Shown piece by piece: positions 1,353 to 53,803 of a stretch of 64,000 bases of DNA (position 1 is its first letter; each line of letters opens with the position of its first letter). The translations under genes and the position numbers were made by a program. A model generated the notes under the pieces. That model was not told the DNA's origin. It searched no databases and worked only from the letters and a program-made list of their open reading frames with translations. Source of the stretch: Mobula hypostoma (Eukaryota). The stretch is taken from NCBI RefSeq assembly GCF_963921235.1, contig NC_086108.1, positions 24,552,001-24,616,000 of the forward strand, read 5' to 3'.

Positions 1353-1390
1353 CAGTCGACGTTTCAGGCCGAGACCCTTCGTCAGGACTA
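1353..1390 (-). ncRNA. Minimal type I hammerhead ribozyme motif (PLE)
   Basis: Minus strand reads TAGTC-CTGACGA-AGGGTCTCGGCCT-GAAA-CG-TC-GACTG: CUGANGA and GAAA core, helix I AGTC/GACT, palindromic ACGT in place of helix III. Confidence 0.8.
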
Positions 1391-2379
1391 ACTGAAGGAA
1401 GAGTGAGTAAGAGATTTGAAAGTTGGAGGGGGAGGGGGAGATCCAATATGATAGGAGAAAACAGGAGGGGGAGGGATGGAGCCAAGAGCTGGACAGGTGA
1501 TTGGCAAAAGGGATACGAGAGGATCATGAGACAGGAGGTCCGGGAAGAAAGACGGGGGGGGGGGGGGAACCCAGAGGATGGCAAGGGGTATATTCAGAGG
1601 GACAGAGGGAGAAAAAGGAGAGTGAGGGAAAGAATGTGTGTATAAAAATAAGTAACAGATGGGGTACGAGGGGGAGGTGGGGCATTAGCGGAAGTTAGAG
1701 AAGTCGATGTTCATGCCACCAGGTTGGAGGCTACCCAGACGGAATATAAGGTGTCGTTCCTCCAACCTGAGTGTGGCTTCATCTTTACAGTAGAGGAGGC
1801 CGTGGATAGACATGTCAGGATGGGAATGAGATGTGGAATTAAAATCTGTGGCCACTGGGAGACCGCTTTGCTGAACATCTACGCTCTGTCCGCCAGAGAA
1901 AGTAGGATCTCCCAGTGGCCACACATTTTAATTCCACATCCCATTCCCATTCTGACATGTCTATCCACGGCCTCCTCTACTGTAAAGATGAAGCCACACT
2001 CAGGTTGGAGGAACGACACCTTATATTCCGTCTGGGTAGCCTCCAACCTGATGGCATGAACATCGACTTCTCTAACTTCCGCTAATGCCCCACCTCCCCC
2101 CGTACCCCATCTGTTACTTATTTTTATACACACATTTTTTCTCTCACTCTCCCTTTTCTCCTTCTGTCCCTCTGAATATACCCCTTGCCCATCCTCTGGG
2201 TTCCCCCCGCCCCTTGTCTTTCTTCCCGGACCTCCTGTCCCATGATCCTCTCGTATCCCCTTTTGCCTATCACCTGTCGAGCTCTTGGCTCCATCCCTCC
2301 CCTTCCTGTTTTCTCCTATCATTTTGGATCTCCCCTTCCCACTCCCACTTTCAAGTCGCTTACTCACTCTTCCTTCAGT

Positions 2380-2417
2380 TAGTCCTGACGAAGGGTCTTG
2401 GCCTGAAACGTCGACTG
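2380..2417 (+). ncRNA. Minimal type I hammerhead ribozyme motif (PLE)
   Basis: TAGTC-CTGACGA-AGGGTCTTGGCCT-GAAA-CGTC^GACTG; predicted cleavage after GUC, between 2412 and 2413. Confidence 0.8.
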
Positions 2418-3719
2418 CGCCTCTTCCTAGAGATGCTGCCTGGCCTGCTGCGTTCACCAGCAACTTTGATGTGTGTTGCAACAGCTTGTATAGCTTGTCC
2501 CCTTCGAGTTCAAACTGGAACAAACATAATCAAATGTATAACATACAAAATTACATAAAGCTTTCAATCAGCTTTAGATCAAAAGCACAGATTCTGTCTG
2601 TTTTGAATTGCCACAGAGATGTAACAAGACCTTCTCAAAAGAAGCAAGACAAATCTATTCATGCCTGATTTCAAGTTCCTTTGTGTTGTTTCACTAACTT
2701 CAGAACAAAGAACATAGAAATTTTTAGCACAATAAAGGTAATTTTCTCCTTTTGCTGAATTCTACAAGATGACAGCACTCTTGACATGTAAAAAGTGGAT
2801 TCTCTCCAAAATCTCTTTATACTTTTAGCATGATTTTTAAGAAAAACTATTTTACCACAGGAAATATTACAAGAAAGGGAACATTGCTACGATTCCAATA
2901 TAATTTTTTGTTTGGGATGTGTGCATCACTAACAAGGGTTTATTGTTGAACTTTGTTATACTTGAAAAGATGGTGGTGGGCTGTCTTCCTCAACTGCCAT
3001 CATCCTTGTGTGTTGGAAGGTGATCTAAGAGGGGGATTACCACTCAGTCCCACTGCTCTGGATAGAAACCACACAGAGGGCAGAACAGAGAGGGTTTTCC
3101 TCCTGTTAAGGAAATTAGTAAATCCATTGGAGTCTTAAAATATTCTGGTAGGATATTGGTCATTATAAGACAATTCTAAAAAATCCCAGATTATTTAATC
3201 CTACAGCTGCCTTGGTGGTATTTGATTTACATCTGTACAGAGTTAGGATGTGTACTGTTGGCAAGAAACCACTGAACTTGCATCGTAACCATGTATATCT
3301 GTAAAGCACAGTTTCTGTGAGTAGTTTGATGAAACCGTCAGACACAATACCCCATGAGCAGTTCACACTGCAGATGAAAATAATATTTCCTTTGCCTTCC
3401 ATGGGAAATCTAGTAAGTGAGAAGAAACTAGTTTTGTTCTACGTTAACTTCTGCTCTGTTCTTAAATCACTGCTGTATCATCAACAAACCTCCAAGTCTC
3501 CTAAGATCTGATCTTAAGCATTTAACAGGTCGGATAATTTATTTAAACCAGTCAATGTTATAAGTTTATCAAGTTGTAATGCGGAGAATTGTTCTATATT
3601 AGGGTATCTGAATCTTCAGTTTGAAATAAAACATCACAAAGGTTCCATTTTAATTTATTTTGAAAAGATAATATAGTGCACAGGCAGATTTTACATTTTT
3701 CATTTATGTTTATACATTC

Positions 3720-4134
3720 ACTCATGTCTTCTCACTGCTGCCATCAGGAAGAAGGTACAAGAGCCTCAAGATTCACACCACCAGGTTCAGGAACAGTAAT
3801 TACCCCTCAGTCATCAGGCTCTTGAACAAAATGAGATAAGCTTCTCTCCACTTCACACCCCATCATTGAAATGTTCCCACAACCAATGGACTCACCTTGA
3901 GGGGACTCTTCTTCTCATATTCTCAATATTTGTTATTATTTATTTTTGTGTTTGCTCAGTTTGTTGTCTTTTACTCTTTGGTTGAATGCCCAAGATGGTG
4001 TGGTCTTTCATTGATTCTGTTATGGTTATTAATCTATAGACTTATTGAGTACACCCACAGGAAAATTAATCTCAGGATTGTACAGTATATGGTGACACAT
4101 ATGTACCTTGATAATAAATTTACTTTGAACTTTG
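3720..4134 (+). mobile_element. Rex1/Babar-type LINE 3' end
   Basis: Reads FSLLPSGRRYKSLKIHTTRFRNS, the typical Rex1 C-terminal motif, followed by a 3'UTR ending AATAAATTTACTTTGAACTTTG. Confidence 0.75.
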
Positions 4135-6227
4135 CAAGTATATCTGTAAAGCACTCACATCCGAAGATCAATTACATTGCTATTGATGCACACAGTCCTG
4201 GATTAGACCACATCTGACATCCTAACCAGATCCTTCTGATTTAATTTTACAGCAGGTTAAATGGCTTGGTTCCCTGAATATCATTTTTAAGTGACGCAGC
4301 ATTGCAAATGTACGTGGACCTACTTGTTTCTTCCAGAACCCAGAAACAGGAAATTTGAACCTATTTATTTAATGAACTTGGTAGGTCACCAAGTCCCCAG
4401 GTTCCACTATAAAATGGTCAAGTCAGGATTGATGTAAACATCTTTGACAGGCTTAATTTCACTTTCGATTAAAACCCAGCAGACCATGTAATCAATTAAA
4501 TGACTACATCGTAAGTTAAGTACCATATTAAAGCTATTGTGCCAAGATCTGATTTCAATATAACTGAGTTTTTGTGGGGTTTTATTTTTTGTTTGTTTTC
4601 TCTTCCATACTTTTCTGTAGCTTTACATATCTGGTTACATAAAAGAACACAAAAAATCAACATTTAAGACAGTTTTCTGATAATAAACTGAACATATAGT
4701 AAACATTCAATAAGCAGAAGTGCCAGGACATAGTAGTTGCATAGCAAATACAAGTACACATTGAAGCAGCAGCCATTACTGAGGAAGACAATGGTAGGTT
4801 CACAAATTATAATAAAAGTTGTAATGATTTTTGAGAGAACAAATACTGTTTTGTTGGAGAATAAACAAACAGACAATAGCTCAACTTTTACTGAGCTATT
4901 CATTAAAGTCTATTAGTGTTCAATCTTAAGAAAGTAAAGGCGGCATTCACAAATGTAAATGTCTCTGCCAGTGCGACACAACTCACCTTTAGTTGTGTAT
5001 TTAATCTGATCACTCACCAATCTTGTAGGAAAGAACAATGAAAACACCCGAGAGTCATGCAGCTAAGAATAACTGAGTTTTAAATGACATTGCAAGTTGC
5101 AATTACTGCTGAATGACCTCTCTGGCCTTGGAATATTAATTTTGAAACTGCAGAATCTCATTTCATGAGAAAATTAATGTGGCAGATTAAAATCATAATT
5201 CATTTTATCTTATTTTTGTATTAAATTATTCTCTTAATCCTTTGTGCATGTCCCATTTTTATTGCACTCACTACAATGATTTAACTGTCATTTATATATC
5301 CAGTTCTTTACTTGTTTCACAACTTGTGAAGGTTCTTCAGAGCTTTAACTCAGTTACATTTCACTGGGTCGTGAGGTCACATGAGCTGTTAATATCCAGA
5401 AATCACATTACATTTGATTTCTGGATAGGAATACCCTGTAAAGTTGGTCAACTGATATTGCAACTCACAGCTTCTTCACACACTTCACCATTATGCCACA
5501 AATCTGAACTGAACACTTACCACACTTCCTTCTTCAGCAATGTTAGCCTGTAAGATTCTGAGTGCAAGCTTCGAAAAAGGCAACAGGGCCGGTGAGGTCA
5601 TTTGGCGCTCCTGTGATCGACAGAGCCATTGGTCTGAGGACTTTGAGTATGAGTTTCAAAAAAGCCAATGAGGCCAATTGAATAATTTGGTGCTCTTGAG
5701 ATCATTGGGTAAGCAGGCACTTGACAAGGGCCAATAAAATGAGGTTAGGTTTAAGTAGATTGGCCATTTTAGGGGTGGCTGGAGGGAGGGATAGAGTCGA
5801 GTTGTGACCGGAAAATGGCGGCGAGAGAGAACATCAAGGAAAGAAGCAAGCTGTTGAAGGAAGGAAGTTTTTGGCGAGAGTGGAAGTGAACTAGAGATAG
5901 AGGTTCCTCGCTTAACTAGTTTAACTCTCCCCAAAAGCTTTAGCAAACCTTCTTGCAAGAATATTGGTCCTCTTTGACTTCAGGTGCAGATCATACCTTC
6001 CCCAGAAGAGAAGATCCACAAACCTGAAACTCTGCCCCCTGCACCAATTCTTCAGCTGCAAACTCATCTACAAATCATCCATCTTGTGGTGCTGCTTTTC
6101 AGTTTTCTCCCTAGCTCCCTATATACACTCTTCAGTACCTTACCTCTACTTATGCCAATGGTAGCAATATGTACCACAACTTCTAATTGCTCAACCTCCC
6201 CTTTTAGAATGCTATGGACCTAATCCG

Positions 6228-7238
6228 TGGGTCCATAGGGGTCCGTGTTGGGGCCGCTTCTTTTTACATTTTACGTCAACGATTTGGATTATGGAATAGA
6301 TGGCTTTGTGGCTGAGTTTGCTGATGATACGAAGATAGGTGGAGGGGCCAGTAGTGCTGAGGAAACAGAGTCTGCAGAGAGACTTGGATAGATTGGAAGA
6401 ATGGGCAAAGAAGTAGCAAATGAAATACAATGCTGGAAAGTGTATGGTTATGCACTTTGGCAGAAGAAATAAACGGGCAGACTATTATTTAAATGTGGAG
6501 AGAATTCAAAGTTCTGAGATGCAATGGGAGTCCTCGTACAGGATACCCTTAAGGTTAACCTCCAGGTTGAGTCAGTGGTGAAGGAGGCGAATGCAATGTT
6601 GGCATTCATTTCTAGAGGAATAGAGTATAGGAGCAGGGATGTGTTCTTGAGGCTCTATAAGGCACTGGTGAGACCTCACTTGGAGTACTGTGGGCAGTTT
6701 TGGTCTCCTTATTTAAGAAAGGATGTGCTGACGTTGGAGAGGATACAAAGAAGATTCACTAGAATGATTCCAGGAATGAGAGGGTTAACATATGAGGAAT
6801 GTTTGTCCGCTCTTGGACTGTATTCCTTGGAGTTTAGAAGAATGAGGGGAGAGCTCATAGAAACTTTTCGAATGTTGAAAGGCATGGACAGGGTGGATGT
6901 GGCAAAGTTGTTTCCCATGATGGAGGAGTCTAGTACAAGAGGGCATGACTTAAGGGTTGAAGGGCGCCCATTCAGAACAGAGATGCAAAGAAATTTTTTT
7001 AGCCAGAGGGTGGTGAATCTATGGAATTTGTTGCCACGGGCAGCATTATACTCAAGTCATTGGGTGTATTTAAGGCAGATTGATAGGTATTTGAGTTCCC
7101 AGGGCATCAAAGGTTATGGTGAGAAGGCGGGGGAGTGGGACTAAATGGAAGAATGAATCAGCTCATGATAAAATGGTGGAGCAGACTCGATGGGCCGAAT
7201 GGCCGACTTCTGCTCCTTTGTCTTATGGTCTTATGGTC
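6228..7238 (+). mobile_element. CR1 LINE, 5'-truncated (RT C-terminus + 3'UTR)
   Basis: ORF 6524-7144 (LYKALVRPHLEYCGQFWSP...RNFFSQRVVNLWN), FADD motif near 6317, (TCTTATGG)n tail at 7221-7238. Confidence 0.95.
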
Positions 7239-7862
7239 TAATCTGAAATGTCCCTGACTCCGGCACTTGTAAGGCATTATACCTTTCACATCCACAGAAT
7301 CTCCTGCCTGTTTCCTTAACTACTGTATCCCCTATCACTCCTGCATTCCTCTTCTCCCCAGTTCCCTTCTGAGCAACAGAGCCAGACTCAGTGACAGAGA
7401 CCCAGGCCCTAAGGGTTTTCCTTGGTAGGTTGTCCACCCTAGCAGTATCCAAAGCAGTTGACTTGTTTTTGAGAGAAACAGCCACAGGAATACCTGCACT
7501 GTCTACCTATTCTTTCCCCTCTCCTGACAGTCACCCAGCAAACTACCTCCTCCAACTTAGGAGTGACTGTCTCTATGTATTCACTATATATCACCTCCTC
7601 ATTCTCCTTTATGTGTCAAATATAATCCAGATGTAGCTCCAATTCTCTAATATGGTTTATAAGGAGCTGCAGCTGGATTCACTTCATGCTGATGTAGGTA
7701 TCAAGGAGTCTGGAAGTCTCCCAAAACTCCCACATCTGACATAAAGAACACACCACTAACCCTGGACCCATTCTCACTGCATTATTTTAAATAAGAAAAC
7801 TTATCAGAAACCTACCTCTGCCTCTTATTGCTGAAGCACTCTAACACTGTCCCACAGCCAGG
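7239..7862 (-). mobile_element. CR1 ORF1 region relic
   Basis: VIGDTVVKETGRRFCGCER resembles the esterase-like ORF1 of the other CR1 copies (GDSIVRG...RFCG at about 37550). Confidence 0.75.
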
Positions 7863-9530
7863 CCTTCTTCTTCTTCTTCTCCTTCTTTTTCGTTTTATGG
7901 TGGTTGGCAACCAGTTTTCAATGCATTACCGCCACCTGCTAGACTTCTTGTGTTCCAACCAAATATGTCCTGGAGTTCTCTACTTTAGACAATCTAGTTC
8001 AGCCTGCAGTTCACTATTAGCATCACTCTGTAGCTGCAATTCCTCGTGAATGCTTAATGCGCTCATTAGATAATGCCGCAAACTGCTATTCTTCCCTAAT
8101 TTTGTCACATGTTTTTGTGTAGTTGCATTACCTCAATAATGTGACAAAATTACATCACTTGTAAGACTAAAATCGTCTTGTTAAAGAATATAAATATGTA
8201 ATAATTTCCTCCATTTTCCAATCTCTTTCCAACTCACCGTTGTTCTTGTTGGGTACTTCTATTTGTTGTTGGAGTTCTGCACATTTACCCTGGGCTTCAA
8301 CCATAAAATCTGAGGATTTTCCTTAAGTTCTGAAACATTTCTTAAATTCTTGACCGTTTGCGATAAATATACAGCTATTAAGATTTCATCTCCCCTGCCT
8401 GTGAACTGTTGGATCCTCCATTCAAAGTTTCTTTGACTTCTTCCTACCTAATCCCTTTAATACCAAGATACTTTTCTGCAGACTTGACGATAATTTTAAT
8501 TTTCTCAGTTCTTTTGCTTGTTTGCGCTGAACAATTAATTGCATCCACCATAAAAAGCATGAAATTCTTTCTACTCATTAGTAGTGTATCCTTATTTTTC
8601 ATATTACAGCTCTCACAATTCACCAGTTTATTATTCCCTGTATTTGTTTGCTTGACAGCCTTTTTTTCATCAAATTCTTTCACTGCCTCTGCATAACTGA
8701 TTCCTTGAGTTACTTTTACATATTGAATCTCAGCCGCCTTCTTGCTATAAATGCACCCTCGATAAGCTGCGCTGTTGTCCTTACCACAATTACAGCATTT
8801 CAGCCTAGCTCCCGCTTCACATTTCCCATATTCATGTTCTCCAGCGCATCTCCCACGTCTTTGTTTTCCTCTGCAGACCGCCGCAATGTGCCCGAATTTC
8901 TGACATTTAAAGGCGGTGGTATATATATTCTAACCGCACAACATATATACCCTAAGTAGACGTTAGTCGGCAATCTCTGTTCATCAAAGTTAATCATTAC
9001 TGATAAATTATCACACTATTTCCCGTTTCTTGTAACTTTCAAACATTTGGCCTCAATAATTTTTGCTCCTTTTATGTTCTGTTTAATCTCATCCATAGTA
9101 ACTTCTGTTGGTGTCCCTGAAAGAACTCCTCTAGTCCACTTTCTATTGTTGGGTATTGAGCATTGTACTGCTTTGCCGTCTATTTTACATAATCTTATCA
9201 TTTTACCTTGCTGAGCACTATCCTGACAAATCATTAATAGCGATCCATTTCGTAAAATCTTTGCTCCTTTAATCTCGCATATAATTTTGTTGAGCATCTT
9301 TGTCAAATGAATCGGGTTCCAATCACCAAAAGACACCCCATCTTCACTTAGTTTTATAATTGCTTTAATCTCATCTTCTTTCCATTGTTTTGCTGTCCTG
9401 TTTTGATCATCCGCTGACTCCTCAGAGTTTGATATCTCGTACCTCTGCTTTCTTTTCTTCCTCTTTCCATTCCGTTCTTCTTTCTCCCATTGAGGCAGGG
9501 AAATGATGGTAAGGTGAAAAAAAGAGATGT
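7863..9530 (-). mobile_element. Nimb/I-group LINE, internally deleted (ORF1 retained, ORF2 mostly lost)
   Basis: ORF1 fragments WNPIHLTK...LRNGSLLMIC...RGVLSGTP, LPTNVYLGY...YIPPPL and FMVDAINCSAQ...KIKIIVKSAEKYLG. ORF2 start resembles ..IANGQEFKK. 3' end CAGGTGGCGGTAATGCA with (GAA)n tail at 7864-7885. Confidence 0.75.
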
Positions 9531-11640
9531 GAGCATCTTTTCAAGAGAAAGGAGGAAGCTTACTTAAGGCCTAGGAAGCAATGATCAGACGGGGCGCTTG
9601 AGAGGTACAAAGTGGTCTGAAAGGAGCTGAAGAATGGACCTAGGGGAACTTGAAGGGGGCATGAAAAGGCCTTGGTAGGTAAGATTATGGAAAACATTCT
9701 ATATGTATCCAAAGAACAGGAGAATAGCTGCCTGGTGTCCTCAGTGGATACCTAACGTTTGTGAGCACAATGCAAAATAGGCTAATATGCTAGAAAATAT
9801 CAATGTTAAGAAAGAGGAAGTGCTGGAACTTTTGAAAAACATTAGAATAGATAATTCCCTGGGGCCAGACAGGATATACCCCAGGTTACTACAGGAAATG
9901 AGGTAAGAGATTGCTGCACCTTTGGCAAAGATCTTTCTGTCCTTGCAGTACTAGTTGGTTTGAGGGTGACAAATGCAATTCCTTTGCTCAAGAAAGGGAA
10001 TAGGGACAACCGTGAAGATTGTGAGCCAGTGTCTTACTTCTATGGTGCGCTAGTTATTGGAGAAGATGCTTAGAAATAGGATTGTACAAACATTTGGAGA
10101 AGCATAGTCTAATTACAGATAGTCAGCATGGCTTTGTGAGAGGCATATCATGCTCGTCTCACAAGTCTGATTGAATTGAGGATGTGACATAGCACATTGA
10201 AGGTAGAGCAGTGGATGTGGTGAATATGGATTTTAGTAAGAAATTTAATAAGGTTTCCTATGGTCATCTCGTTCAGAAATACAGGAGGCATGGGATCCAG
10301 GGAAACTTGGCTGTGTAAATTCAGAATTGGCTTGCTTATAGAAGGCAGAGGGTGGTAGTAAACAGACTGTATTCTGCCTGGAGGTCTGAGACCAGTGTTG
10401 TTCCACAAGGAGCTGCCCTGAGACTCCTGCTCTTTATGACTTCTGTAAAATGACTTGGATGTAGAAATGGCAGGGTGGGTTAGTGAATAGCAGGTGACAC
10501 GATAGTAGGTCGAGCGGTGAATAGCGTAGAATGTTGCTACAGGGTACAATGTGACATTGCTAGGATGTAGAGCTGGGCTGAGAAGATGCGGATGGAGTTC
10601 AATCCATAAAAGTATGAAGTGATTCACTCTGTAAGGTCAAATTTGAAGGCACAATACAGGGTTAATGGCATGCTTCTTGGCAGTGTGGAGGAACAGAGAG
10701 ATCTTGGGTTCACATCCAAAGATCTCGAATACTTGTGCAAGTAGTTAGGGTTGTTAACAAGACATCCAGTTTATTAGCCTTCATTAGCCAGGGGACTGAG
10801 TTCAAGAGCCATGAGGTAATGCTGAAGCTATATAAAACTGGTTGTTTATTATTTACTGGGATACAGTGTGGAATAGGTCTTTCCAGCCCGACAAGCCATG
10901 CTGCTTAGCAACCCCTGATTTACAATCACCCATCAGCCCATGAACCAGTACATCTTTGGACTGTGGGAGGAAACTGGCGTACCTGGAGAAAACCCACAAA
11001 CTCCATGGGGAGGATGTCCAGACTCCTTACAGAGGACGCCAGAATTGAGCTCCAAACTCCAATGCTCTGAGTGGGAATAGCATTGTGCTTAACACTATGC
11101 TTCCAAGGCAACCCATGTAGGCACACTTAGCATATTTTGTTCAATTCTGGTCATATCATTATAGGAAGGGTGCAGAAGCATTAGAGAGGATTCAGAGGAG
11201 ATTTGCCAGCATGCTGCCTGGATTAGATATTCTAATGAGAATAGGCTGAGCAAACTTGGGCTTTTCTCTCTCAGGAGCAAAGGAAGATAAAAGGTGACTT
11301 GACAGAGGCATACAAGATGATAGCAGCCATAGTCATTTTCCCGGGGTAGAAATATCCAAATATCAGGGTACATAATTTTAAGGGTATTGGAGGAAAGTAT
11401 GGGGAAAGGGGATGCAAGAGGCAAGTTTTTTACACAGAGTGAGTACATGAAATGACCTGCCAGGCATGGTGATAGAGCCATATATATTAGTGGCATTGAA
11501 GAATCGCTTCAATAGGCACTTGGTTGAGAGGAAAATGGAGGGCTGGGTAGGACAGAAGAGGTAGATTGATCTTAGACTAGGTTGAGAAGTCATTATAACA
11601 TTGTGGGACAAAGGACCAGTGCTATAATGTTCTATGCTTC
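9530..11640 (+). mobile_element. Degraded CR1 LINE (tether-RT-3'UTR), interrupted by a SINE
   Basis: Degenerate SPGPDRIYPRLL, SQHGFVRGISCSS, DFSKKFNKV and VPQG motifs; 3' end TATAATGTTCTATG near 11623-11636. Confidence 0.88.
10843..11114 (-). mobile_element. tRNA-derived V-domain SINE (HE1-like)
   Basis: V-SINE core on the minus strand (GTGGGTTTTCTCCAGGTACGCCAGTTTCCTCCCACAGTCCAAAGATGTAC) with an AT-rich tail; splits the CR1 YKTG|RHTL region. Confidence 0.8.
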
Positions 11641-12185
11641 ATATTTTAAGAAGATAGTAGCATGTAAATAGTTTGAAAATACATCGACAATCGGCCAAAC
11701 TTGCTCCAACTCCCATAAATGCAAAGTAAAAAGCAATACAGACAAAATAACAATAAACTCACTATTTTCTTCACCCTCTGAATATCAGCCACAAGGAAAA
11801 TTAAAAATTGACTCACTGGCAATAAACCTTGGAGTAATTGCTGAGAATCAATTGAAGCAAATGCTTACGTATCTCCCTCCATCAAAAGTGTTGAGTGAAT
11901 CGGATTTAAAAACATCCTTTTCTAACATCAATTCCCAATGAATTTTCTCTGACATGTGTATAATGGAGTTTTCACCTTTATACATAAAAACATTGCTTTT
12001 AAATTGGAACCTAAATGTTTTATGGAAAGGTTCACATTCTCACATATTTCAAATCACACCATTGGAGTAATTGCAGAAATCCTTTGACACAAGTACTCAG
12101 TGAAACTGATTCTGTAATTGATGAGCAACAACATAAAAGTCGCTGGTGAACGCAGCAGGCCAGGCAGCACCTCTAGGAAGAGGTA

Positions 12186-12223
12186 CAGCCGACGTTTCGG
12201 GCCGAGATGCTTCGTCAGGACTA
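12186..12223 (-). ncRNA. Hammerhead motif, helix II damaged
   Basis: TAGTC-CTGACGA-AGCATCTCGGCCC-GAAACGTC-GGCTG on the minus strand. Confidence 0.6.
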
Positions 12224-12499
12224 ACTGAAAGAAGTGCTAGTAAGAGATTTGAAAGTTGGAGGGGGAGGGATGAAGCTAAGAGCTGGACAGGTGATTGGCA
12301 AAAGGGATATGAGAGGATCATGGGACAGGAGGCCTAGGGAGAAAGAAAAGGTGGAGGGGGGGAAAAACCCAGAGGATGGGCAAGGGGTATAGTGAGAGGG
12401 ACAGAAGGAGAAAATGGAGAGAGAGAAAAAGAATGTGTGTATATAAATAAATATCGGATGGGGTACGAGGGGGAGGTGGGGCATTAGTGGAAGCGGAAG

Positions 12500-14140
12500 G
12501 CTCTTCAACTTTTCGACCACATTTTGACTCAGACTCGCTATCACAGCCGTATATCCTTTATTGGAATGTGTCTCCGCCGCAACTTACTCCAGTTGGCTTT
12601 AGGATTCATTTTCGAGCCTCTCAATTTGGACCTTCTGAGGATCCCAGGTACTCACATTTCATTGACTCTGCCTCTCATCGCTTCTCCCATCAAGCTCTGA
12701 AGGTGACACTCTCCGCCATGAGGAGGTATTTGGTGTCCCTATCCCAGACCCTCCCACACTTTCAGGACACTTTCTTCGCCGTCTGTAATGGACCTGCTCG
12801 TTATTTCATCCTCTGTCGGATCAATGCCAGCAATCGCCGTATTTTTGACTTTGTCATGCTAGGCAAGGATCACAAGAACTTACATCTGCAGACACCAGAG
12901 CCTGCTGGCCCCAATGCTAGCAGGCATGAACTTCAGATTGCGGCCCCTGCCATTGGTCTCGCCAGCTCCAACACCAAAAGGCATATTCAAAACCCGGACT
13001 CCAGCAACAACCATGACACCTTCAAAGCGATTGCGCAACCACCAACTGCGATTCCAGCATTGAAGTCCAGGCCGGGTATTTATGTGCTGCTATTGTTACT
13101 CCCGTCTCCCCTTCCCCCACCACCACTCTGCAACCCGTATCCCTCAGATCCCACCATCAGCTTCTGGGCCCTCAGAGGCTCCATCTTCCTCTCACCCCAA
13201 ACCTCGCCACTCCACTGACACCCCCAGCCTCCCCCCTCCCCCCTCTGATCCCACTTCTCATCCGTGCCGGGTCCTTACCATCCCCTCCAACCTTCAACTG
13301 ACTGAGGCAGAGCGCTCTGTCCTCAGTAAGGGCCTCACCTTTGTCCCCCTTCACCCACACCTCAGCGAGTTCCGCGTTTGCCATGATGCTGAACTCTTCT
13401 TCCGCTGGCTCCGTCTCCAAGCCTACTTCTTCAGCAAGGACTCTCCCACCCCCACCGATGACCCCTTCTCCCGTCTTCAACCCTCTTCCTCTTCATGGAC
13501 ACCCCGCTCTGGTCTTCTGCCTGCTCTGGATCTCTTTATTGCTAACTGCCAATGGGACATCAACCATCCCAACTTCACCGCACCTTGTTCCCATTCCAAC
13601 TTCACTCTTTCCGAACAGTCTGCTCTCCACTCCCTCCGCACTAATCCTAACATTACTATAAAACCCGCCGATAAGGGGGATGCTGTTGTAGTCTGGCGCA
13701 CTGACCTCTACCTCGATCATGACACCACTAAGGAGCACCAGGCCATTGTCTCCCACACCATCACCGACTTTATCCACTCAGGGGATCTCCCATCCACTGC
13801 TACCAACCTTATAGTTCCCACACCACGCACTTCCCGTTTCTACCTCCTACCCAAGATCCACAAACCTGTCTGTTCTGGTAGACCCATTCTCTCAGCTTGC
13901 TCCTGCCACACCAAACTCACTTCTGCATACGTCGACACAGTTTTATCCCCCCTTGTTCAATCCCTTCCTACCTATGTTCGTGATACTTCTCACGCTCTGA
14001 AACTTTTCGATGATTTTAACTTCCCTGGCCCCCACCGCTTTATTTTAACCGTGGATGTCCAGTCCCTATAAACTTCCATCCCCCATCAGGAAAGGCTCAA
14101 AGTTCTCCGCCTCTTTTTGGATTCCAGACCTAACCAGTTC
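12500..14140 (+). pseudogene. PLE polyprotein fragment (N-terminal region + RT fingers/palm start), frameshifted and truncated
   Basis: ORFs 12487-13218 and 13082-14071: SVLSKGLTFVP, ELFFRWLRLQAYF, ALHSLRTNPNITIKPADKG. Confidence 0.88.
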
Positions 14141-14224
14141 CCTCCCCCTCCTGTCTTCTCCTATCGTTTCAGATCTACCCCTCCCCTTCCCACTTTCAAA
14201 TCTCTTACTAGCTCTTCTTTCAGT

Positions 14225-14262
14225 TAGTCCTGACGAAGGGTCTCGGCCTGAAAAGTCGACTG
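14225..14262 (+). ncRNA. Hammerhead motif, palindromic loop mutated (ACGT to AAGT)
   Basis: TAGTC-CTGACGA-AGGGTCTCGGCCT-GAAAAGTC-GACTG. Confidence 0.65.
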
Positions 14263-14570
14263 TACCTCTTCCTAGAAATGCTGCCTGGCCTGCTGCGTTC
14301 ACCAGCAACTTTTATGTGTGTTGCTTGAAATTCCAGCATCTGCAGATTTCCTCGTGTTTGCACTGTAATTGATAAGTTACTTTCTATGGTCTGTCACAGA
14401 TACTATCACTCTTTTTATTTCCCAAGTTTAAAACAGTTCTCGAAACAAGGCTATTTACATGCTGCAATCTTCTTCTTGAGAAGCCTTAATTTCAAACCGG
14501 CTTGCTTCCGCTCTGGTATTGTGCACTGTTGGTTGCTGATGAGGCCAATGTGGATTCTGCAGAGTTTTGT

Positions 14571-14789: not shown

Positions 14790-15595
14790 CAGGCCTCCCC
14801 GCCCTGCAGTATTCATTAAAACCCGCATTGTGAGCCTGTCCGGAGCTCAGATGAGCTGCCCAGCTCGGGTCCTATGTTCAAAGGATGGAGGAACAGCAGG
14901 TGCCTCTGGCTTGTTTCGTGTTGTGTTGACATGATCACGGTCATGGCGTGATGGCAGGGGAACGGTAGTGCAATCCACCAAATCTTGGTGGGCCTGTTTA
15001 AGGTGATCTAGAGAAATACATTCAGGTTTACCCCTCTTATTTATGATAAAAGTCTTTCCTCTCGATTCAAAAATGCGGAATGGAGCATTGTAAGTGGGGG
15101 GCATAAGGTGATGTTGGAGTGCATCATGGTAGACAGTCAGTCAGAGACTGAAAAGCTCACGGTCAAACGTGCTGTACTTCCTTTTGGCGGGAAGAAGCTG
15201 CCAGCTGAAGAAGGAGAGCAGGTGCCACATGCCTACAACCAACTGTCCATGCACAGGACCCACAGCATAGCCTGAAGCATCAGTAGTGATGGCTATAGGT
15301 GTGTTGGGGAGCACATATGCCAATAGGGATGATCTAGAAAGAGCTTGTTTGCTATCATCAAGTGTCTTGGTCATGTCTGCTGACCAGTCAAGCACGTGAT
15401 TAGGGGTATTGTCTTTAAGTGTACTGTACAGGGGGAGTATAAGTTCAGCCGCTCATGAAATGAAGTGGTAACAGAAGTTCACCATACTTAAAAGTTCTTG
15501 TAAATTTTTAGTAATGCTCACAGACCTCAGAAGTCCCATTGCGCTGGCACTGTTGCTGCAAGGTGGTCGGCATTTCCTAGCGTTCCTCCCAAAGC

Positions 15596-15669
15596 GAGCA
15601 TGGTAAAAGCACAGACCCGGCATTGTCTGTTTGAGCATGGTAAAAGCACAGACCCGGCATTGTCTGTTT
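15596..15669. repeat. Perfect 37-bp tandem duplication in gag
   Basis: GAGCATGGTAAAAGCACAGACCCGGCATTGTCTGTTT twice. Confidence 0.95.
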
Positions 15670-17052: not shown

Positions 17053-17059
17053 TCAGTAC

Positions 17060-36365: not shown

Positions 36366-36374
36366 CAAATAAAC

Positions 36375-41366: not shown

Positions 41367-41980
41367 GATATCTCAATTTATCTGTATTCAAATGTTCAAA
41401 ACAGATTAATTCACGGTCATATACACCAGGGTGCAATGAAATGCAAACACAACATAATTTAATTTGATTTTATAGTGAATTGTCACTCATTTGAAGTCCT
41501 TCAAAGTATTTGACTTTGTAGCATGAAACATTATTAAACTGGATGAGAGACCTATTCCAGGAATGGTGGTGTTTCAATACTGGGATCTCACTGAGACAGA
41601 GCACTACACACAAGTCCTATCTTGTTTCAAAATAGTTTACAGATATATAACTAGTAAATTTCAGAAATCATTTAAGAGCAAAATAGTGCTTTGAACTGTA
41701 GATTTTTTACATGTACCTGCACAGCATCTTGGTATTTCTAAGTTGTTAAAGAATAATTTATTTAACTAAGATGTATGTTGTGATGTTCTGACCATGGCAT
41801 TAATTTACCTCTAGATCTCATTGATCACAAGTAAAAAGCATTTAGACAACTTAGCAGAGGATGTAAAGTATTAAAATTTCTGACACCTAGCTCCCTCCAT
41901 CTATCATCCCATTTACCACTTGCCCTCGATTTATGCCCTCTGGTTTTATCCACGGGGAAAAGTTTCTTGTAGTCTACCTG

Positions 41981-42133
41981 CACACACAAAATGCTGGAGG
42001 AACTCAGCAGACTCGGTAACATCTCTGGAAAAAAAGTACAGCCGACGTTTCGCACTGAAACCCTTTGGCAGCACTTTTGCATTTTGTGTGCGTTGCTTGA
42101 ATTTCCAGCATCTGCAGATTTTCACTTGTTTTC
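41981..42133. mobile_element. Older PLE mini inverted insertion
   Basis: 10-bp TSD AGTCTACCTG (41971-41980 and 42134-42143). The minus arm carries a degenerate hammerhead; the plus arm ends with the PLE tail TTGAATTTCCAGCATCTGCAGATT. Confidence 0.85.
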
Positions 42134-42291
42134 AGTCTACCTGTCATCGACTTCAATCATTGCCCTTCTTAACCTATTGAAGTACAGGGTTAACAAACCA
42201 GGCCTCTTCATTCTCTCCTCATACCTGAAATCCAAACCAGGTAACAGCCTAGGAGAGAATTATGTGAGGTGAGGGGACAAACTTCACTCAT

Positions 42292-42387
42292 GCAACACAC
42301 TCACTACTGAAGGAACTCAGCAGGCCAGGCAGCATCTATGGAAAAAGAGTATAGTCAATGTTTTGGGCTGAGACCTTTCACCTGGAA
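42292..42387 (-). mobile_element. PLE pLTR fragment ending at a degenerate hammerhead
   Basis: GGAACTCAGCAGGCCAGGCAGCATCTATGGAAAAAGAGTATAGTCAATGTTTTGGGCTGAGACCTTTCACCTGGA. Confidence 0.75.
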
Positions 42388-42929: not shown

Positions 42930-43030
42930 TAATTAATCAATCAACCTGCACGATGGGAAAATGGAGCCCCCAGAGGAATCCCATGCAGCCAAAGAGAGAA
43001 TGTGCAAACTCCAAATTGAAAGGATTCATA
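42930..43030 (-). mobile_element. V-SINE fragment
   Basis: GGAGCCCCCAGAGGAATCCCATGCAGCCAAAGAGAGAATGTGCAAACTCC. Confidence 0.65.
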
Positions 43031-43035
43031 CTGGT

Positions 43036-45961: not shown

Positions 45962-46263
45962 AGTGTTGGCGTGTGACCAAGTGGTCTAGTGATTTGAAGG
46001 TCACTAGTTCGAGCTTTGGCTGAGGCAATGTGTGTATCCTTGAGCAAGGCACTTAACCACACATTGCTCTGCGTTGACACCAGTGCCAAGCTGTATGGGT
46101 CCTAATGCCCTTCCCTTGGACAACATCAGTGGCGTAGAGAGGGGAGACTTGCAGCATGGGCAACTGCTGGTCTTCCATACAACCTTGCCCAAGCCTGCGC
46201 CTTGGAAACCTTTCAAGACGCAAATCCATGGTCTCATGAGACTAGCGGATGCCTACATAAAAA
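45962..46263 (+). mobile_element. tRNA-derived CORE-type SINE
   Basis: A-box-like TGACCAAGTGG, B-box-like GTTCGAGC, CORE-like TGTATCCTTGAGCAAGGCACTTAACC; 8-bp TSD ATTACATT at 45954-45961 and 46264-46271. Confidence 0.75.
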
Positions 46264-49200
46264 ATTACATTGAGAAAACAATGCTTAAAAAATTGTCCTA
46301 TCCTATTATTCCAACTGCTTTAACAATCAGAATAACTCCATCTCCAAGTCCACTATCAGATACAGTGCATGAGCAAAGTCTCAATGATAAATATCAGAGA
46401 CTAAATCCTCCAGTAAGAACTTCCTTTATGGAAAATCCTACAAGAATAAATTATGCAAAAGAAATCTACTGAGTCATACAATGAGACTTGTAAATTTTAG
46501 CTCCCTGCCCTTGACCATTGGCTGAAAGTACATCTGCTAGAAAACTTCCAGTTCTACCTCATCAAAAGGGAATAAACAACAAGCATCCTAACTGCACTAC
46601 TCATGGAAATGCTGGGCTACAGTGAATTTACAAACAGGTCTGACTTGACATGAACTGCACAATATTAAAGGCAAAGGAAAATACTAAGTCTGTATTGACA
46701 CTATTATCTTTGTAGTTCACCTTAGTGGTAGGTTTCCAGCTTGACTGTTGTCTCTAGTAGATCCTTGCAGGGCTCCTGTGGTACCTCCTCCTCAGTGGCA
46801 ATGATGACAAACAACAATAGTTAAAGTTCAGCTTTGCCACATGCACTATCTTAGGCTGAGGGGCTAGAGTCCTGAGTACCTGTCTGAGAAGCATACACAA
46901 GGGTCTTGCAGATGGCAGGAGGTGGTGCTGATGAAACAAAGCAGCACTTTCAAGGTCAACAATGTGGCTGACGCTGGGATTGCATCGGCTGTATACCTGA
47001 TGTGACCCAGATAATAGTCCGGCATCAATGCCTACTGACACTGTCAGCATTCTCTCATCTATAATGCACTGCCTGACAACAATCAGGTTTCTTAAAGACA
47101 GCTGTATGCTGCTGGTCAGCATCTTTTAGCTCCTGAAGAGAAGTAGTCTGCTTCCAATATGTCAGCTCTGAGTGCAAAGGCCTAAGGTTACAATAGGCCA
47201 TCTACTGGTCTCCATCTATGCCACACCACAAGCAGACACCTGCTTCCAGCACAATGGGAATGTCGATGCTACCTCTGAGAGGTGCCCTCCTCTTCATAAT
47301 TAGAGTGGTTCAGCAGAGAATTTTATGAAAGATTCTAATGAAAGATGCCAATGTTCCTTAATTCTTCTTCCATTTCATTGGCAGGCCCTAAAATTGACAG
47401 GTATTTCAACAAGCATCTGCCTACCCAGTTATGCTCCTCTATTCACAGATTTCATCAACGTGTTCTGCGGTGGATCTGAGACATGACCTGTTCCTGTGGG
47501 AAAATGACATTCACATTTCCCTATCCTTCAGGCATAACTACACCCTACTAGTGTTTCTAATTTAGTTTGGGTATAATTCTTTAGTGAGTATTGGAGTTGT
47601 TGTTTGCTGGGGTCAGGAGCAACAATATAATGGCCTTCATCTCCATGAGTGAATGATATCTCCTTTGATTCCCCAGTGATAATAAGCATAGCAATAGTGA
47701 ATGCATAGTATTCCTCAGAGGGGTTGTCCAGCAGACACACAAATATACATGGAACAGAGGAAACTTGCACCATAAGAAACCTGCAGACTTTATTAGCTTC
47801 TGGCATTCTTAGTTCCCGAACAAACTTTGTAATCATAATATGGATCAGCAGCATCTAAGTGGAACACCTAACTTAATCTAATGCTGTTGCAACCTGATCC
47901 AAAGTGGAAAGTCTAAGTGGAAATTTCAGAATACTCCAAATACACAAATGTCTCATTGTGACAAAGTGTGAAATGCGCTTTGAGGAGACTTGGTTATTCA
48001 GAAGTATTGCAGAGGTGAGGAGTGCAGATAAGTGAACAGCAAATGAATCTACCGGGTACACATGTTGAGCTGAGTTATGTGTGAGAGGTGGTGCTTGTTT
48101 CAGTTCATATTTATGAGCCAAAAGGGTCACAGCACACATCAGGCAAAGCAAGTGAGACAGCACATTCACTTCCAGTACTGTCTAATTCACTGACAGGTGT
48201 TCTCAAGGCAATCATAACTTGATTAGGTTCTCAGACATGCAGTATTGACAACAGAAATCCTTTTCAACCATGTACTGGATAGAGAAATGAGGTGTTGCCC
48301 ACTATGATGTTTTCACCGGGATCACCACTATAAGTGATGTCCCAGTACAGCAGTGCAGTAGAGACTGAACACACACCAGGCGGCTTGACTGAAATTCTAA
48401 ACCACTGACTCCGTCACTGAAGCACTGTGGTTGTAGTCAGTACTATATACATGATGCACTGCAGCAATCGAGCTATGCTCCCTTCTCAGCCTATCCTAAT
48501 TGTTACCAAGCAGAAAGGCAAAGGTTGCACGAGCATTGGGCATGCCATCTGCCCCTCCATTACACACCATCATGAATTGGAAGCTTAATCTCGTCCCTTC
48601 GTTGCTACTGAGTCAAAATCATGAAACTCTCTTGCCATCAGCATGGTGGAGCTCTTCCACCACAAGTTCTGCAGTTTAGAGTAACATGCTATGACCTTTG
48701 CTAGGACAGTTTGGGATAGCCATTAAATGTGATCCTTGACCAATGGCATCCACATTCATGGTGCAGCTTGTTGCCTGATTTACACACAACAGTCAACCAG
48801 ACTGCGGAGGTTACAACAAAATTTGTCTTGCTGTCACTAGTGAGGAAGTAGGCTTAACTGGAACAGAAATGACACGTTGAACATTTTCACCACCAGTGGC
48901 ATTGTCTGTCAGCAATTACGCTGAAGGGGGTTATCAACTTAATGTGTTAGAACTTGTGGAGTTCTGGGTGGGGGTGGAAAGTACACCTTTAATGTGTGTA
49001 TTCCCCACCCAACTCCACATCTACACGAAAGGAGTTCAATTAGGATACAGTAGGTTTGTATACCATCTGGGAAAATTGCTAATCACTTGTGTTAGTCTTT
49101 ATTCAGTAGGCACCTGATCTAATAATGTTAATTGGACTGCTATCTGGGGATTTAACATTAATTTAATCACTAATTCATTGTAATCTCAGACACAATCCCA

Positions 49201-50321
49201 ACAATAAGGTAAAAGTCAGCAATTAAATCAATGCAGAAATGGAGTGATATTATTGAATAGACTTAGACATGTTACCCAATTTTCAAATTAACTCTGCCCA
49301 ATAATTAATTGTTTGGTGGTCCTAACTATTCCTATACAAATCAATTAAATGCACAGATATTTAAGTCTTAACATTAATTGCTGACTGTGGGCAATAAATT
49401 GTTGTTACTATTTTTTGTTCTGCTTCAGTAATGATTTGTCAAGTCAGGGTTTATTCAACCAATCAAGCTTTAGTAAATAACTCAGTTCAAATCAAGCTGA
49501 GTATTGAAAGGCAATATGACATGGAGAGTAACCCAACTCTGCACATTTGGAGCATACAGTATAAAAGTGATGTTGTCATATATTACATTAGGTGAGTTGA
49601 AATGCTGCTGTAATGAGGCTGATGGGCTGAATGGCATTTTCCCTTTTTTTATGTCTTTAGTACAAACCAAAGTCGATTCAATGTAATGCAGATCAGCATT
49701 GTGCTTCTAATGTGCAATGGTTTTAAATTGACCTTTAGACATTTAACAATTCCCTATACAGTATGTCAAAATCTTTCACTCCTGTGTTTAGGCATTGTGC
49801 AGCTCCATTACATTATGTGCATCGACTACCATCCCTGATGGCCACTCAGAAGTGTGTGTATATATCTCCATTAATCCAGAGTTCAATATTTAAATTCAAT
49901 TTTGCCTTTTTTTCATATTTGCCTATGATTCTAATTGAAAGAATGTTTGTATGTTTGTTGCCAATTTCGTTATGTGACAATCCAGAGATCAACCTTTGCT
50001 GATCTGCTTTTCACTTGAATGCCGGCTGGCTACTCGTATTCCTTCAGCGGAACCTCTTCCCTATTCTATCTTCACTGCTGTATCTTGCATGGAGTACAAC
50101 AAATTGGTCTTTCCCCTCCAACCCACATGGTTGTTCTTAACCCTGCCACAGGGCAGGCAAAACAATCTTCGAGACATGTTCACAGTACAGTCTACACAGG
50201 TTGCAAAAATTAGAATGCTTGAGGCTTCCGCAGGACTACCTGTTGGTTTTCTTGGACCCATGAAACTGTATGTCCTAGAATTAGGAGCAACCGAGAAAAT
50301 GGTCATCTCGCCTCACCACTC

Positions 50322-50440
50322 TTAGTCCGGATGCAGGGTTTTGATCCGAAATATCAAGTGTTTCTTTTCTCCCACGATGCTTCTCAACCAACTGAGTTCT
50401 TCCAGCAGGCTGTGTATTGCTCAGGTTCCTCACATCTGCT
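50322..50440 (+). mobile_element. Old PLE pLTR fragment starting at a decayed hammerhead
   Basis: AGTCCGGATGCAGGGTTTTGATCCGAAATATC...GATGCT...CTGAGTTCTTCCAGCA. Confidence 0.55.
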
Positions 50441-51164
50441 CCATTTGCAGTTGCATCTTCCTGTCCCTGTTAACTCATCTGATGGTTCACTTTGGGTCTG
50501 TGCCAGTCTCTTGGAGTGACTTTTGCCCTCCGTGAAGCATTGGAATGTCCAAATCATGAATCCATTCCTCCATGAATCAAAACGGCTTTATTATTGGAGA
50601 TGTGGTCTGCGTTCATCAATGATGTACCTGAAACTCCATATACTGCAGTTTTAACAGATCACATACCCTCCCTACCTTAATTCACAAAATTTGATTAAAT
50701 TAAATTAAATTTGATTTAATTTTATTTTATTAAATTTATGATGTACTCTTCTCCCTGCTTCACCAGACTCGACTTGCCAAAGTTAACGCATGCTGTTCTT
50801 CCCTTTAGCATAACCTAGTAAAGCCTTTGTCAATGTCTTCCGTTCATTGCCCCAGCTAGGAATGTAATTACCGAGCAGGCTACTTGTTCACTACTTTATA
50901 TTGGTCTTTTACACACAGATGAAAACAATGAAGTTAATTAAATCAAATTGGTAAACTAAATTAAACAAATAAATATTTAAAATTTAATCACTCCCTTACT
51001 CATTCCAGAGACATTGCACAATGATGAAGAGATACTAAAATCTGCATGATGTTGATTACCATCTGCAACTTTATCGTGGCTTTTTTTCCAAGAAATTCAT
51101 CCCATTTTTGTTGATGGAATTGGTCAAAGGCCACCAGACAGAATAAGGACACACAGATTAGATT

Positions 51165-51530
51165 TACATGTGCAGCAAATCTTATCAGTATTACAGTGGA
51201 GAAAAGGGAATTACAGAGACATAAGAGAGGAGTTGGCCAGAATTTATTGGAAAAAAACACTGGCAGGGACAACAGCAGAGCAGCAATGGCTGGAATTTCT
51301 GGAAGCAATTCAAAAGGCACGGGATATATACATCCCAAAGAAGAAGAAGTATTTTAAAGGAAAGATGAAACAAGAGAAGTCAAAGGCAACGTAAAAGCCA
51401 AAGTGAGGGCATAAAATAGTGCAAATATTAACGGGAAGTTAGAGGATTGAATCAGCCATGATAAAATGGCAGAGCAGACGCGATGGGCCAAACGCCTAAT
51501 TCTGCTTCTACATCTTATGGTCTTGTGTCT
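51165..51530 (+). mobile_element. CR1 fragment with the whole RT deleted (tether fused to 3'UTR)
   Basis: WRKGNYRDIREELARIYWKK...YIPKKKK, then directly ATCAGCCATGATAAAATGG...TCTTATGGTCTT. Confidence 0.85.
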
Positions 51531-51660
51531 TGTTGTCCTCACTGAGAAGAATGTAATATCCGTGTATTATATTTATATCTTAATTGAAGATAGCACCACC
51601 GAACAACACAACCAAAGGTGACCTCCTTCAGATAGTTTACAAAACTACTATTATTTCCTT

Positions 51661-51852
51661 CAAAGTTGCTGGTGAACGCAGCAGGCCAGGCAGCATCTCT
51701 AGGAAGAGGTACAGTCGATGTTTCAGGCCGAGACCCTTCCCTGAAACGTCGACTGTACCTCTTCCTAGAGATGCTGCCTGGCCTGCTGCGTTCACCAGCA
51801 ACTTTGAGGTGTGTTGCTTGAATTTCCAGCACCTGCAGAATTCCTCGTGTTC
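51661..51852. mobile_element. 192-bp PLE hairpin insertion
   Basis: 13-bp TSD CTATTATTTCCTT (51648-51660 and 51853-51865); 67-bp inverted arms at 51661-51727 and 51740-51806; PLE tail on the right. Confidence 0.93.
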
Positions 51853-53663
51853 CTATTATTTCCTTACTACTTCTTTCAAATATGTTTCTGTTACAGTTAG
51901 ATTCTGTGATACATAGAAACATAGAAACATAGAAAATAGGTGCAGGAGTAGGCCATTCGGCCCTTCAAGCCTGCACCGCCATTTATTATGATCATGGCTG
52001 ATCATCCAACTCAGAACCCCGCCCCAGCCTTCCCTCCATACCCCCTGACCCCTGTAGCCACAAGGGCCATATCTAACTCCCTCTTAAATATAGCCAATGA
52101 ACTGGCCTCAACTGTTTCCTGTGGCAGAGAATTCCACAGATTCACCACTCTCTGTGTGAAGAAGTTTTTCCTAATCTCGGTCCTAAAAGGCTTCCCCTCT
52201 ATCCTCAAACTGTGGCTCCTCGTTCTGGACTTCCCCAACATCGGGAACAATCTTCCTGCATCTAGCCTGTCCAATCCCTTTAGGATCTTATACATTTCAA
52301 TCAGATCCCCCCTCAATCTTCTAAATTCCAACGAGTACAAGCCCAGTTCATCCAGTCTTTCTTCATATGAAAGTCCTGCCATCCCAGGAATCAATCTGGT
52401 GAACCTTCTTTGTACACACTCTATGGCAAGGAGGTCTTTCCTCAGATTAGGGGACCAAAACTGCACACAATACTCCAGGTGTGGTCGCACCAAGGCCTTG
52501 TACAACTGCAGTAGTACCTCCCTGCTCCTGTACTCGAATTCTCTCGCTATAAATGCCAGCATACCATTCGCCTTTTTCACCGCCTGCTGTACCTGCATGC
52601 CCACTTTCAATGACTGGTGTATAATGACACCCAGGTCTCGTTGCACCTCCCCTTTTCCTAATCGGCCACCATTCAGATAATAATCTGTTTTCCTATTTTT
52701 GCCACCAAAGTGGATAACTTCACATTTATCCACATTAAATTGCATCTGCCATGAATTTGCCCACTCACCCAACCTATCCAAGTCACCCTGCATCCTCTTA
52801 GCATCCTCCACACAGCTAACACTGCCACCCAGCTTCGTGTCATCCGCAAACTTGGAGATGCTGCATTTAATTCCCTCATCCAAGTCATTAATATATATTG
52901 TAAACAACTGGGGTCCCAGCACTGAGCCTTGCGGTACCCCACTAGTCACCGCCTGCCATTCTGAAAAGGTCCCGTTTATTCCCACTCTTTGCTTCCTGTC
53001 TGCTAACCAATTCTCCACCCACACCAATACCTTACCCCCAATACCGTGTGCTTTAAGTTTACACACTAATCTCCTGTGTGGGACCTTGTCAAAAGCCTTT
53101 TGAAAATCCAAATATACCACATCCACTGGTTCTCCCCTATCCACTCTACTAGTTACATCCTCAAAAAATTCCATGAAATTCGTCAGACATGATTTTCCTT
53201 TCACAAATCCATGCTGACTTTGTCCGATCATTTCACCGCTTTCCAAATGTGCTGTTATCACATCCTTGATAACTGACTCCAGCAGTTTCCCCACCACCGA
53301 CGTTAGGCTAACCGGTCTATAATTCCCGGTTTCTCTCTTCCTCCTTTTTTAAAAAGTGGAGTTACATTAGCCACCCTCCAATCCTCAGGAACTAGTCCAG
53401 AATCTAACGAGTTTTGAAAAATTATCACTAATGCATCCACTATTTCTTGGGCTACTTCCTTAAGCACTCTAGGATGCAGACCATCTGGCCCTGGGGATTT
53501 ATCTGCCTTCAATCCCTTCAATTTACCTAACACCACCTCCCTACTAACATGTATTTCACTCAGTTTCTCCATCTCACTGGACCCTCTGTCCCCTACTATT
53601 TCTGGAAGATTATTTATGTCCTCCTTTGTGAAGACAGAACCAAAGTAATTATTCAATTGGTCT

Positions 53664-53803
53664 CAAACAACAGGAATTCTGCAAATGCTGGAAATTCAAG
53701 CAACATACATCAAAGTTGCTGGTGAACGCAGCAGGCCAAGCAGCATCTATAGGAAGAGGTGCAGTCGACGTTTCAGGCCGAGACCCTTCGTCAGGACTAA
53801 CTA
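53664..53803 (-). mobile_element. 140-bp PLE mini-element (hammerhead + 3' tail)
   Basis: 13-bp TSD ATTCAATTGGTCT at 53651-53663 and 53804-53816; sequence closely matches 1258-1393. Confidence 0.95.
53762..53799 (-). ncRNA. Minimal type I hammerhead ribozyme motif, intact
   Basis: TAGTC-CTGACGA-AGGGTCTCGGCCT-GAAACGTC^GACTG. Confidence 0.82.

Follow-up and report, generated by a model that had tools for sequence, protein, structure and literature searches.

What do the small hammerhead ribozymes scattered through this part of the Mobula hypostoma genome do? The stretch that we analysed (hereafter the window: 64,000 nucleotides (nt) of contig NC_086108.1, positions 24,552,001 to 24,616,000) carries motifs that a preliminary description had taken for five dispersed hammerheads that could dimerize in trans and could cut any host intron transcribed across them in the sense orientation. 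We report here that these motifs are minimal type I hammerheads carried by a Penelope-like element (PLE) of Neptune type, in the terminal repeat called pLTR; the class is already published (Cervera 2014, PMC4209133), and the window motifs are thus of a known kind. As for their role, we think it probable that the hammerheads of this abundant element pair in cis on tandem source elements and that the copies in the window are inert.

The five motifs were all found again at the same places and on the same strands, and the cut predicted between 2412 and 2413 in the copy at 2380 agrees with that proposed earlier. The sequence AGTC-CTGACGA-A-(helix II)-GAAA-(C/A)G-TC^GAC/GGC is present at 5/5 sites. 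Our structural descriptor passed four of the five, and in 100 dinucleotide-resampled windows it gave a mean of 0.01 matches (maximum 1). If the motif is clear in all five, only three copies are intact, however (1353, 2380 and 53762). At 12186 helix II contains two mismatches (GCAT for GGGT), two of its four pairs are gone and the descriptor rejected it; at 14225, AAGT replaces the palindrome. This AAGT is likely a private mutation, since it was the only one among 140 descriptor matches in the loci scanned. The ACGT palindrome is kept in 4/5 window motifs and in 64 of 74 sampled copies, and a G10.1-U11.1 wobble is present in four of the window motifs. Nor are these motifs five separate dispersed elements: they belong to three insertions, each with target-site duplications of 11-13 bp. 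Two of these are inverted pairs in head-to-head orientation, and the third is a solo copy of 140 bp. A further inverted pair, truncated inside the motif, is absent from the preliminary description. The features are the following, ORF standing for open reading frame and LINE for long interspersed nuclear element:

1258..2479: insertion A, two 5'-truncated PLE ends (each GIY-YIG end, pLTR, hammerhead and tail) inverted head to head, the left arm having the long tail and the right arm the short one
1247-1257 and 2480-2490: target-site duplication of insertion A
1353..1390, minus strand: intact minimal hammerhead with G10.1-U11.1 wobble, predicted cut 1358/1357
2380..2417, plus strand: intact minimal hammerhead with G10.1-U11.1 wobble, predicted cut 2412/2413
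12123..14362: insertion B, an inverted pair with an internally deleted ORF
12124-12493, minus strand: inverted pLTR arm of insertion B
12499-14161: 5' part of the PLE ORF in the sense arm of insertion B, after which the arm has an internal deletion of about 1.46 kb, the pLTR end, the hammerhead and a long tail
12112-12122 and 14363-14373: target-site duplication of insertion B
12186..12223, minus strand: minimal hammerhead with broken helix II
14225..14262, plus strand: minimal hammerhead with non-palindromic AAGT
53664..53803, minus strand: 140-bp solo copy inside a LINE, beginning 36 nt before the cut and stopping 102 nt after it
53651-53663 and 53804-53816: target-site duplication of the solo copy
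53762..53799, minus strand: intact minimal hammerhead of the solo copy, predicted cut 53767/53766
51661..51852: further inverted pair, both arms truncated inside the hammerhead (starts at −23 and −11)
51648-51660 and 51853-51865: target-site duplication of this pair

The LINE split by the solo copy (52011-54964, minus strand) has endonuclease and reverse transcriptase (RT) regions, and the hammerhead lies sense to it; we take this LINE to be CR1-like.

We then looked at the carrier. Exact matches to the motif number 58,318 in the genome, and the sequence just downstream of it (the tail) is matched 86,368 times, reversed-pattern controls giving 0. This amounts to about one motif per 60 kb (3.48 Gb), and with three exact matches the density in the window is unremarkable. 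The carrier ORF is an uninterrupted natural frame of 1,016 amino acids (aa) with RT and, at its C terminus, a GIY-YIG domain. Its last 904 aa matched RVT_1 (E=5e-5) and GIY-YIG (E=9e-4), both weakly and below the curated cut-offs, and a PDB search with this ORF gave no significant match. The linker between RT and endonuclease reads CX4CxxC, which falls within the CX2-5CxxC pattern of Neptune-type elements; the clade call is made from this linker and the host range and does not separate Neptune from Nematis. As described by Craig et al. 2021 (PMC8557442), endonuclease-bearing PLEs of the Neptune and Nematis types share with ours the RT, the Cys linker, the C-terminal GIY-YIG and the partial tandems, as well as an inverted 5'-truncated copy and a tail of 30-40 bp at one end only.

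A young tandem array on the minus strand (L051:6957 to L052:4350) shows the arrangement of a source element. The order is motif-ORF-motif-ORF-motif, with three intact same-strand motifs at periods of 3516 and 3514 bp and 6 mismatches plus 2 gaps between the units. The motif is sense to the RT/GIY-YIG ORF and lies about 325 nt past its stop codon and 138 nt ahead of the first ATG of the next unit. Since a same-strand motif is available 3.5 kb away on such elements, dimers could form in cis, and trans-dimers between dispersed copies are not needed. Directly before helix I, all Neptune-type subfamilies have a branch-point-like sequence followed by a pyrimidine tract and AG (2355-2384 in the window). 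This may be a 3' splice site of the kind reported in Penelope of D. virilis. Contigs from three of four presumed RNA runs cover the element, though they show neither RNA ends nor strand nor level, and no canonical splice joint was present among the contig joints shown.

To see how copies are made, we read the ends of all 100 consecutive tail-anchored copies within the initial 3.3 Mb of contig C1, selected regardless of the core (positions are counted from the cut). All 100 stop at least 50 bases past the cut site: 3' ends fell at +55 to +78 (52 copies), +95 to +115 (40) and +50 to +54 (6), with 2 elsewhere, so that a typical copy ends about 67 or 102 nt past the cut. Inverted pairs have one end of each kind, as in 17 of 17 head-to-head pairs (about 6e-6 by chance) and in the three pairs of the window. 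Ends located beyond the cut imply that the template RNA was probably uncut, or had been re-ligated, at that ribozyme.

The 5' ends are heterogeneous. Of the 100 copies, 36 extend at least 299 nt upstream towards the ORF, and 31 begin between −47 and −21 (1.15 per base vs about 0.045 per base at −101 to −298, the bin having been picked post hoc). Only three begin within 3 bases of the cut. The cluster peaks near the first base of helix I (window examples at 51739/51740 and 53803), and its 31 starts comprise 19 inversion junctions, 8 solos with target-site duplications and 4 unclassified cases. Genome-wide, truncated starts numbered 1,734 at −32, 457 at −40, 287 at −60 and 488 at the cut, the patterns being unequal in stringency and the −32 count coming from the stricter one. 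Among the first 100 starts at −32, judged by eye, 16 were palindromic junctions and about 10 carried the flank of another subfamily. The pile-up at the 5' edge appears real, and microhomology between two cDNAs, a hairpin stop or a start site are possible causes. A start site at −32 marked by a cap G is unsupported: once inversion junctions were set aside, no G excess was seen upstream by eye. We also rejected a spliced template, the sequence upstream of the −30 to −36 starts not being common to the copies, and cut RNA as template, as starts were not enriched at +1; cut RNA is thus not a favoured template. An inverted partner lies within 1.2 kb upstream in at least 38/100 copies and a same-strand tail in only 5/100.

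A similar situation is documented for PAc, a Poseidon element of the green anole (Frangieh et al. 2024, PMC11167929). There too the hammerhead sits where pLTR and ORF meet, the tail is set by two neighbouring internal starts of reverse transcription a short way downstream, and the template is uncut RNA, as we infer for the present element. The PAc ribozyme cleaves only with the element protein, mutants still insert and no RNA-seq ends map to the cut. The two differ in that our element has a Neptune-type linker and its first ATG 138 nt downstream of the cut, whereas PAc is cut 26 nt inside its ORF.

We propose the following course of events. On tandem source elements, two motifs would likely pair in cis through the ACGU palindrome, probably with the help of the element protein, and would then cut the RNA slowly. 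Reverse transcription would begin on uncut or re-ligated RNA, at the two start positions that lie a little past the motif. Cleavage would serve to trim or turn over the source transcript and would not be required for insertion. The end positions, together with a subfamily that carries C instead of A at core position 6 (A6C, see below), suggest that cleavage is indeed not needed for insertion. Because starts just downstream of the motif mean that short truncated copies usually include it, the copy number can be explained without any host function.

Duplex trapping, damage in two of the five and neutral decay lead us to predict that the window copies, which are truncated insertions, are inert. 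In the inverted pairs the antisense arm is made before the sense ribozyme whichever the direction of transcription, so that the ribozyme is predicted to be trapped in a duplex; in the minimum-energy folds of these pairs, which hold 4/5 window copies, 33-37 of the 37 ribozyme bases were paired to the antisense arm. An isolated monomer is predicted to form helices I and II and to pair G5-A6-N7-G8 with C15.2-G16.2-U16.1-H17, and would thus latch its own cleavage site; the copies of the Poseidon-type family described below are predicted to do the same. Indeed, G5-A6-Y7-G8 is complementary to C15.2-G16.2-U16.1-H17 in both ribozyme families that we found (2385-2412 in the window). When 50 nt of upstream pLTR were included, a predicted hairpin over −47 to −17 displaced the ribozyme fold, and in the other intact-core copies tested the double hammerhead lay 2.9-7.9 kcal/mol above two monomers. 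As the energy model ignores Mg2+ and tertiary contacts, and as the predicted folds are no stabler than shuffles (z −1.1 to +0.6), these folds indicate only that help is probably needed.

The preliminary description had named as a refuting result a core no better conserved than its flank across copies, and within the family this is what we observed. In the 53/100 copies that span −60 to +16, differences amounted to 3/530 in the non-CpG core and to 23/1802 in the non-CpG flank (p=0.24), four subfamily-diagnostic flank columns having been dropped. Decay among family copies is CpG-driven and neutral; since dead copies drift neutrally, this comparison says nothing about source elements. Fully intact motifs were found in 45/74 motif-spanning copies, the extra base between A9 and 10.1 was A in 52/53 copies, and core position 6 was A in 53/53 main-family copies. 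Older Neptune-type subfamilies share the motif and diverge in the upstream pLTR; in them G10.1-C11.1 is the modal pair (18/23 and 19/29). We took this pair to be usual in the class but not part of its definition, because in the copies that lack it pairing is kept.

Between families the picture is different. A second, unrelated minimal hammerhead family, of Poseidon type, has 150 exact matches (loci L251-L280, e.g. L276:1493-1544), and endonuclease remnants 29-39% identical were found in 4/30 of these loci. Its motifs keep CUGANGA, the extra base after A9, GAAA, UH and ACGT or CpG-decay forms of it (among 30, ACAT 8, ACGT 5 and ATGT 5, ACAT and ATGT both being CpG decay of ACGT). Compared with the Neptune-type motif, pairs 2.1-1.1, 2.2-1.2, 10.2-11.2 and 10.3-11.3 are changed on both sides, pairs being counted from structure anchors and part of the Poseidon-type helix II being fixed by the search pattern. 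Core and palindrome are thus kept with swapped helices, which supports selection on source elements.

Several results weigh against pairing and cleavage in cis as we propose it. For the window copies, the active dimer is predicted to lie 10.5 kcal/mol above two misfolded monomers, even in cis. The youngest subfamily has G10.1-U11.1 in 58/74 copies and G-C in 13/74. An amplified A6C subfamily (L281-L310) reaches at least 5,576 genome matches; it is an older Neptune-type subfamily with a pLTR of its own, its ORF remnants share about 70% identity with the young family, and it lacks the main-family tail in 26/30 loci. In view of G10.1-U11.1 and A6C, the present lineage may have little activity at all. 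As to the ends, the sample was anchored at +19 to +48, so that 3' ends nearer the cut are hidden, and re-ligated circles would give an intact junction too. These facts leave room for two other views of the element itself. In the one, which we regard as rather unlikely, the hammerhead acts mainly uncut, as a latched structure at the 5' boundary of the element RNA (start site or reverse-transcription stop), and cleavage is dispensable for amplification; it is raised because the A6C and G10.1-U11.1 subfamilies reached thousands of copies, copies do not preferentially begin at the cut, and there is a pile-up of cDNA ends at the first base of helix I. In the other, which we consider unlikely, catalysis is vestigial in the lineage: the motif would hardly cut, and would persist because its fold is a signal, either at the 5' boundary of the RNA or to the element protein. 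The contrast between the A6C subfamily and the invariant A6 of the main family, the G-U pair of the youngest subfamily, the predicted latch and upstream hairpin and the 31 starts between −47 and −21 would fit such a loss; moreover, in another hammerhead A6C lowered the rate at 0.3 mM Mg2+ from 0.30 to 3.6e-6 per min, about 100,000-fold (PMC7151607). The same mutant still cut at 0.067 per min at 1 mM Mg2+, so that C6 is not dead, and the youngest family has A6. The conservation of core and palindrome between the Neptune and Poseidon types, folds no stabler than shuffles and, with no G excess before −32, the lack of a cap signature also speak against this view.

That the dispersed copies should form dimers in trans and, when transcribed in the sense orientation, cut host pre-mRNA, as the preliminary description had supposed, is in our view very unlikely. 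Partners would be plentiful, with 45/74 copies intact and tens of thousands in the genome, a double-hammerhead fold can be drawn without pseudoknots, solos such as that at 53762 escape duplex trapping, and Xenopus retrozymes are depleted from introns (bioRxiv 10.64898/2026.07.22.740005). Trans pairing requires, however, that helix I of both partners open, and the copies show no sign of selection on the core. Four of the five window copies are predicted to be duplex-locked, at least 38/100 sampled copies have a close inverted partner, the dimer is energetically unfavourable in the predictions, and source elements offer a partner in cis. Published monomers were inactive and dimers weak (PMC4209133), and 8/9 Xenopus dimers were uncleaved in the bioRxiv report. 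Cutting of host introns is unsupported as well: 142 window ORFs (136/213 unmasked and 6 others) gave only an RNase H match and weak noise and no host exon, short exons or one large intron being still possible. We likewise give very little credit to the idea that the short copies form a retrozyme without long terminal repeats (LTRs), or a short interspersed nuclear element family, spreading through a ribozyme-cut, circularized monomer RNA. Vertebrate retrozymes do derive from pLTRs (same bioRxiv report), and of the 55 sampled copies whose 5' end lies no more than 100 nt from the cut, 11 were short solos with target-site duplications; yet the window has no head-to-tail short units, same-strand tails are rare upstream, and the 5' ends are heterogeneous, do not lie at the cut and often reach towards the ORF.

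As the preliminary description had stated, PLE-associated minimal hammerheads in which a palindrome replaces helix III are published together with a dimer model. According to PMC4209133, they occur in pLTRs of metazoan PLEs, including fish Neptune, Poseidon and Xena, partly as opposite-strand pairs; monomers showed no activity and dimers a low one. Our motifs share with them the type I core without helix III, the palindromic 15.2-16.2, the extra base after A9 and a helix I of 4-5 bp, as well as opposite-strand pairs spaced by 100-700 bp and a majority of copies that are truncated and solitary. They differ from the Schistosoma ones by a helix II of 4 bp instead of 7-8 bp, and from those of that report in general by the G-U at 10.1-11.1 in the youngest subfamily (usually G10.1-C11.1, which is stated not to belong to the descriptor), by the A6C subfamily and by a copy number that greatly exceeds the 4,000-9,000 published for coelacanth and Xenopus. 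The searchable supplementary files of PMC4209133 contained no shark or skate names, and a literature search of incomplete coverage, judged from titles, gave no report on this Neptune-type family or on an A6C PLE subfamily. Animal non-LTR retrozymes (PMC7229834 and bioRxiv 10.64898/2026.07.22.740005) also have pLTR-derived type I hammerheads that work better as dimers, but form head-to-tail short repeats, unlike the truncated or inverted PLE ends found here; the bioRxiv report gives retrozymes in one cartilaginous fish and cleavage in 1/9 Xenopus dimers. Rfam covariance models, which the preliminary description had proposed as a check, gave no hammerhead match at E<=10, in the whole window or in 2300-2520.

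In itself the finding is ordinary: the ribozyme class is published and the repeat that carries it is very common. Its copies, which can be dated and number tens of thousands, are nevertheless material for the open question of the role of PLE hammerheads, and they allow tests of cleavage against insertion (A6C subfamily, end positions) and of the purging of intact sense copies from introns. The only residue of interest is the genomic hint that cleavage is dispensable for amplification; if the hammerhead did act mainly uncut and latched, this genome would be a natural experiment bearing on the function of PLE ribozymes.

The decayed copies that the preliminary description had placed near 42040-42075, 42352-42387, 50325-50355 and 63210-63240 are real homologues, with local alignment scores of 62, 81, 51 and 35 against shuffle maxima of 31, 29, 30 and 29, that at 63210 being the weakest. 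They are as follows:

41980..42134: older minus-strand copy (core region 42040-42075, its position 6 being C) beside an inverted long-tail piece at 42082-42134
42313..42379, minus strand: older 5'-truncated copy with decayed core
50321..50440, plus strand: old diverged homologue with broken core
63216..63287, plus strand: very old diverged homologue, the weakest match

In the copy at 42040, the C found at position 6 of the core is not only decay, since C6 is also a subfamily trait.

Outside the window, a frame of 273 aa (L010:6897-7715, minus strand) that is not transposon-like lies 1.6 kb from an inverted hammerhead pair and is possibly a host exon. The RNase H match in the window is a fragment of LTR-retroelement type at 15141-15449 (minus strand; Pfam RT_RNaseH_2, E=1e-14). 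A near full-length L1-type LINE occupies 55872-61041 (plus strand), with an ORF1 weakly matching Transposase_22, endonuclease, RT and a few stops. Finally, two ORF pieces at 8444-9540 (minus strand) have a zinc-knuckle-like pattern and no Pfam match; they presumably represent ORF1 of another LINE.

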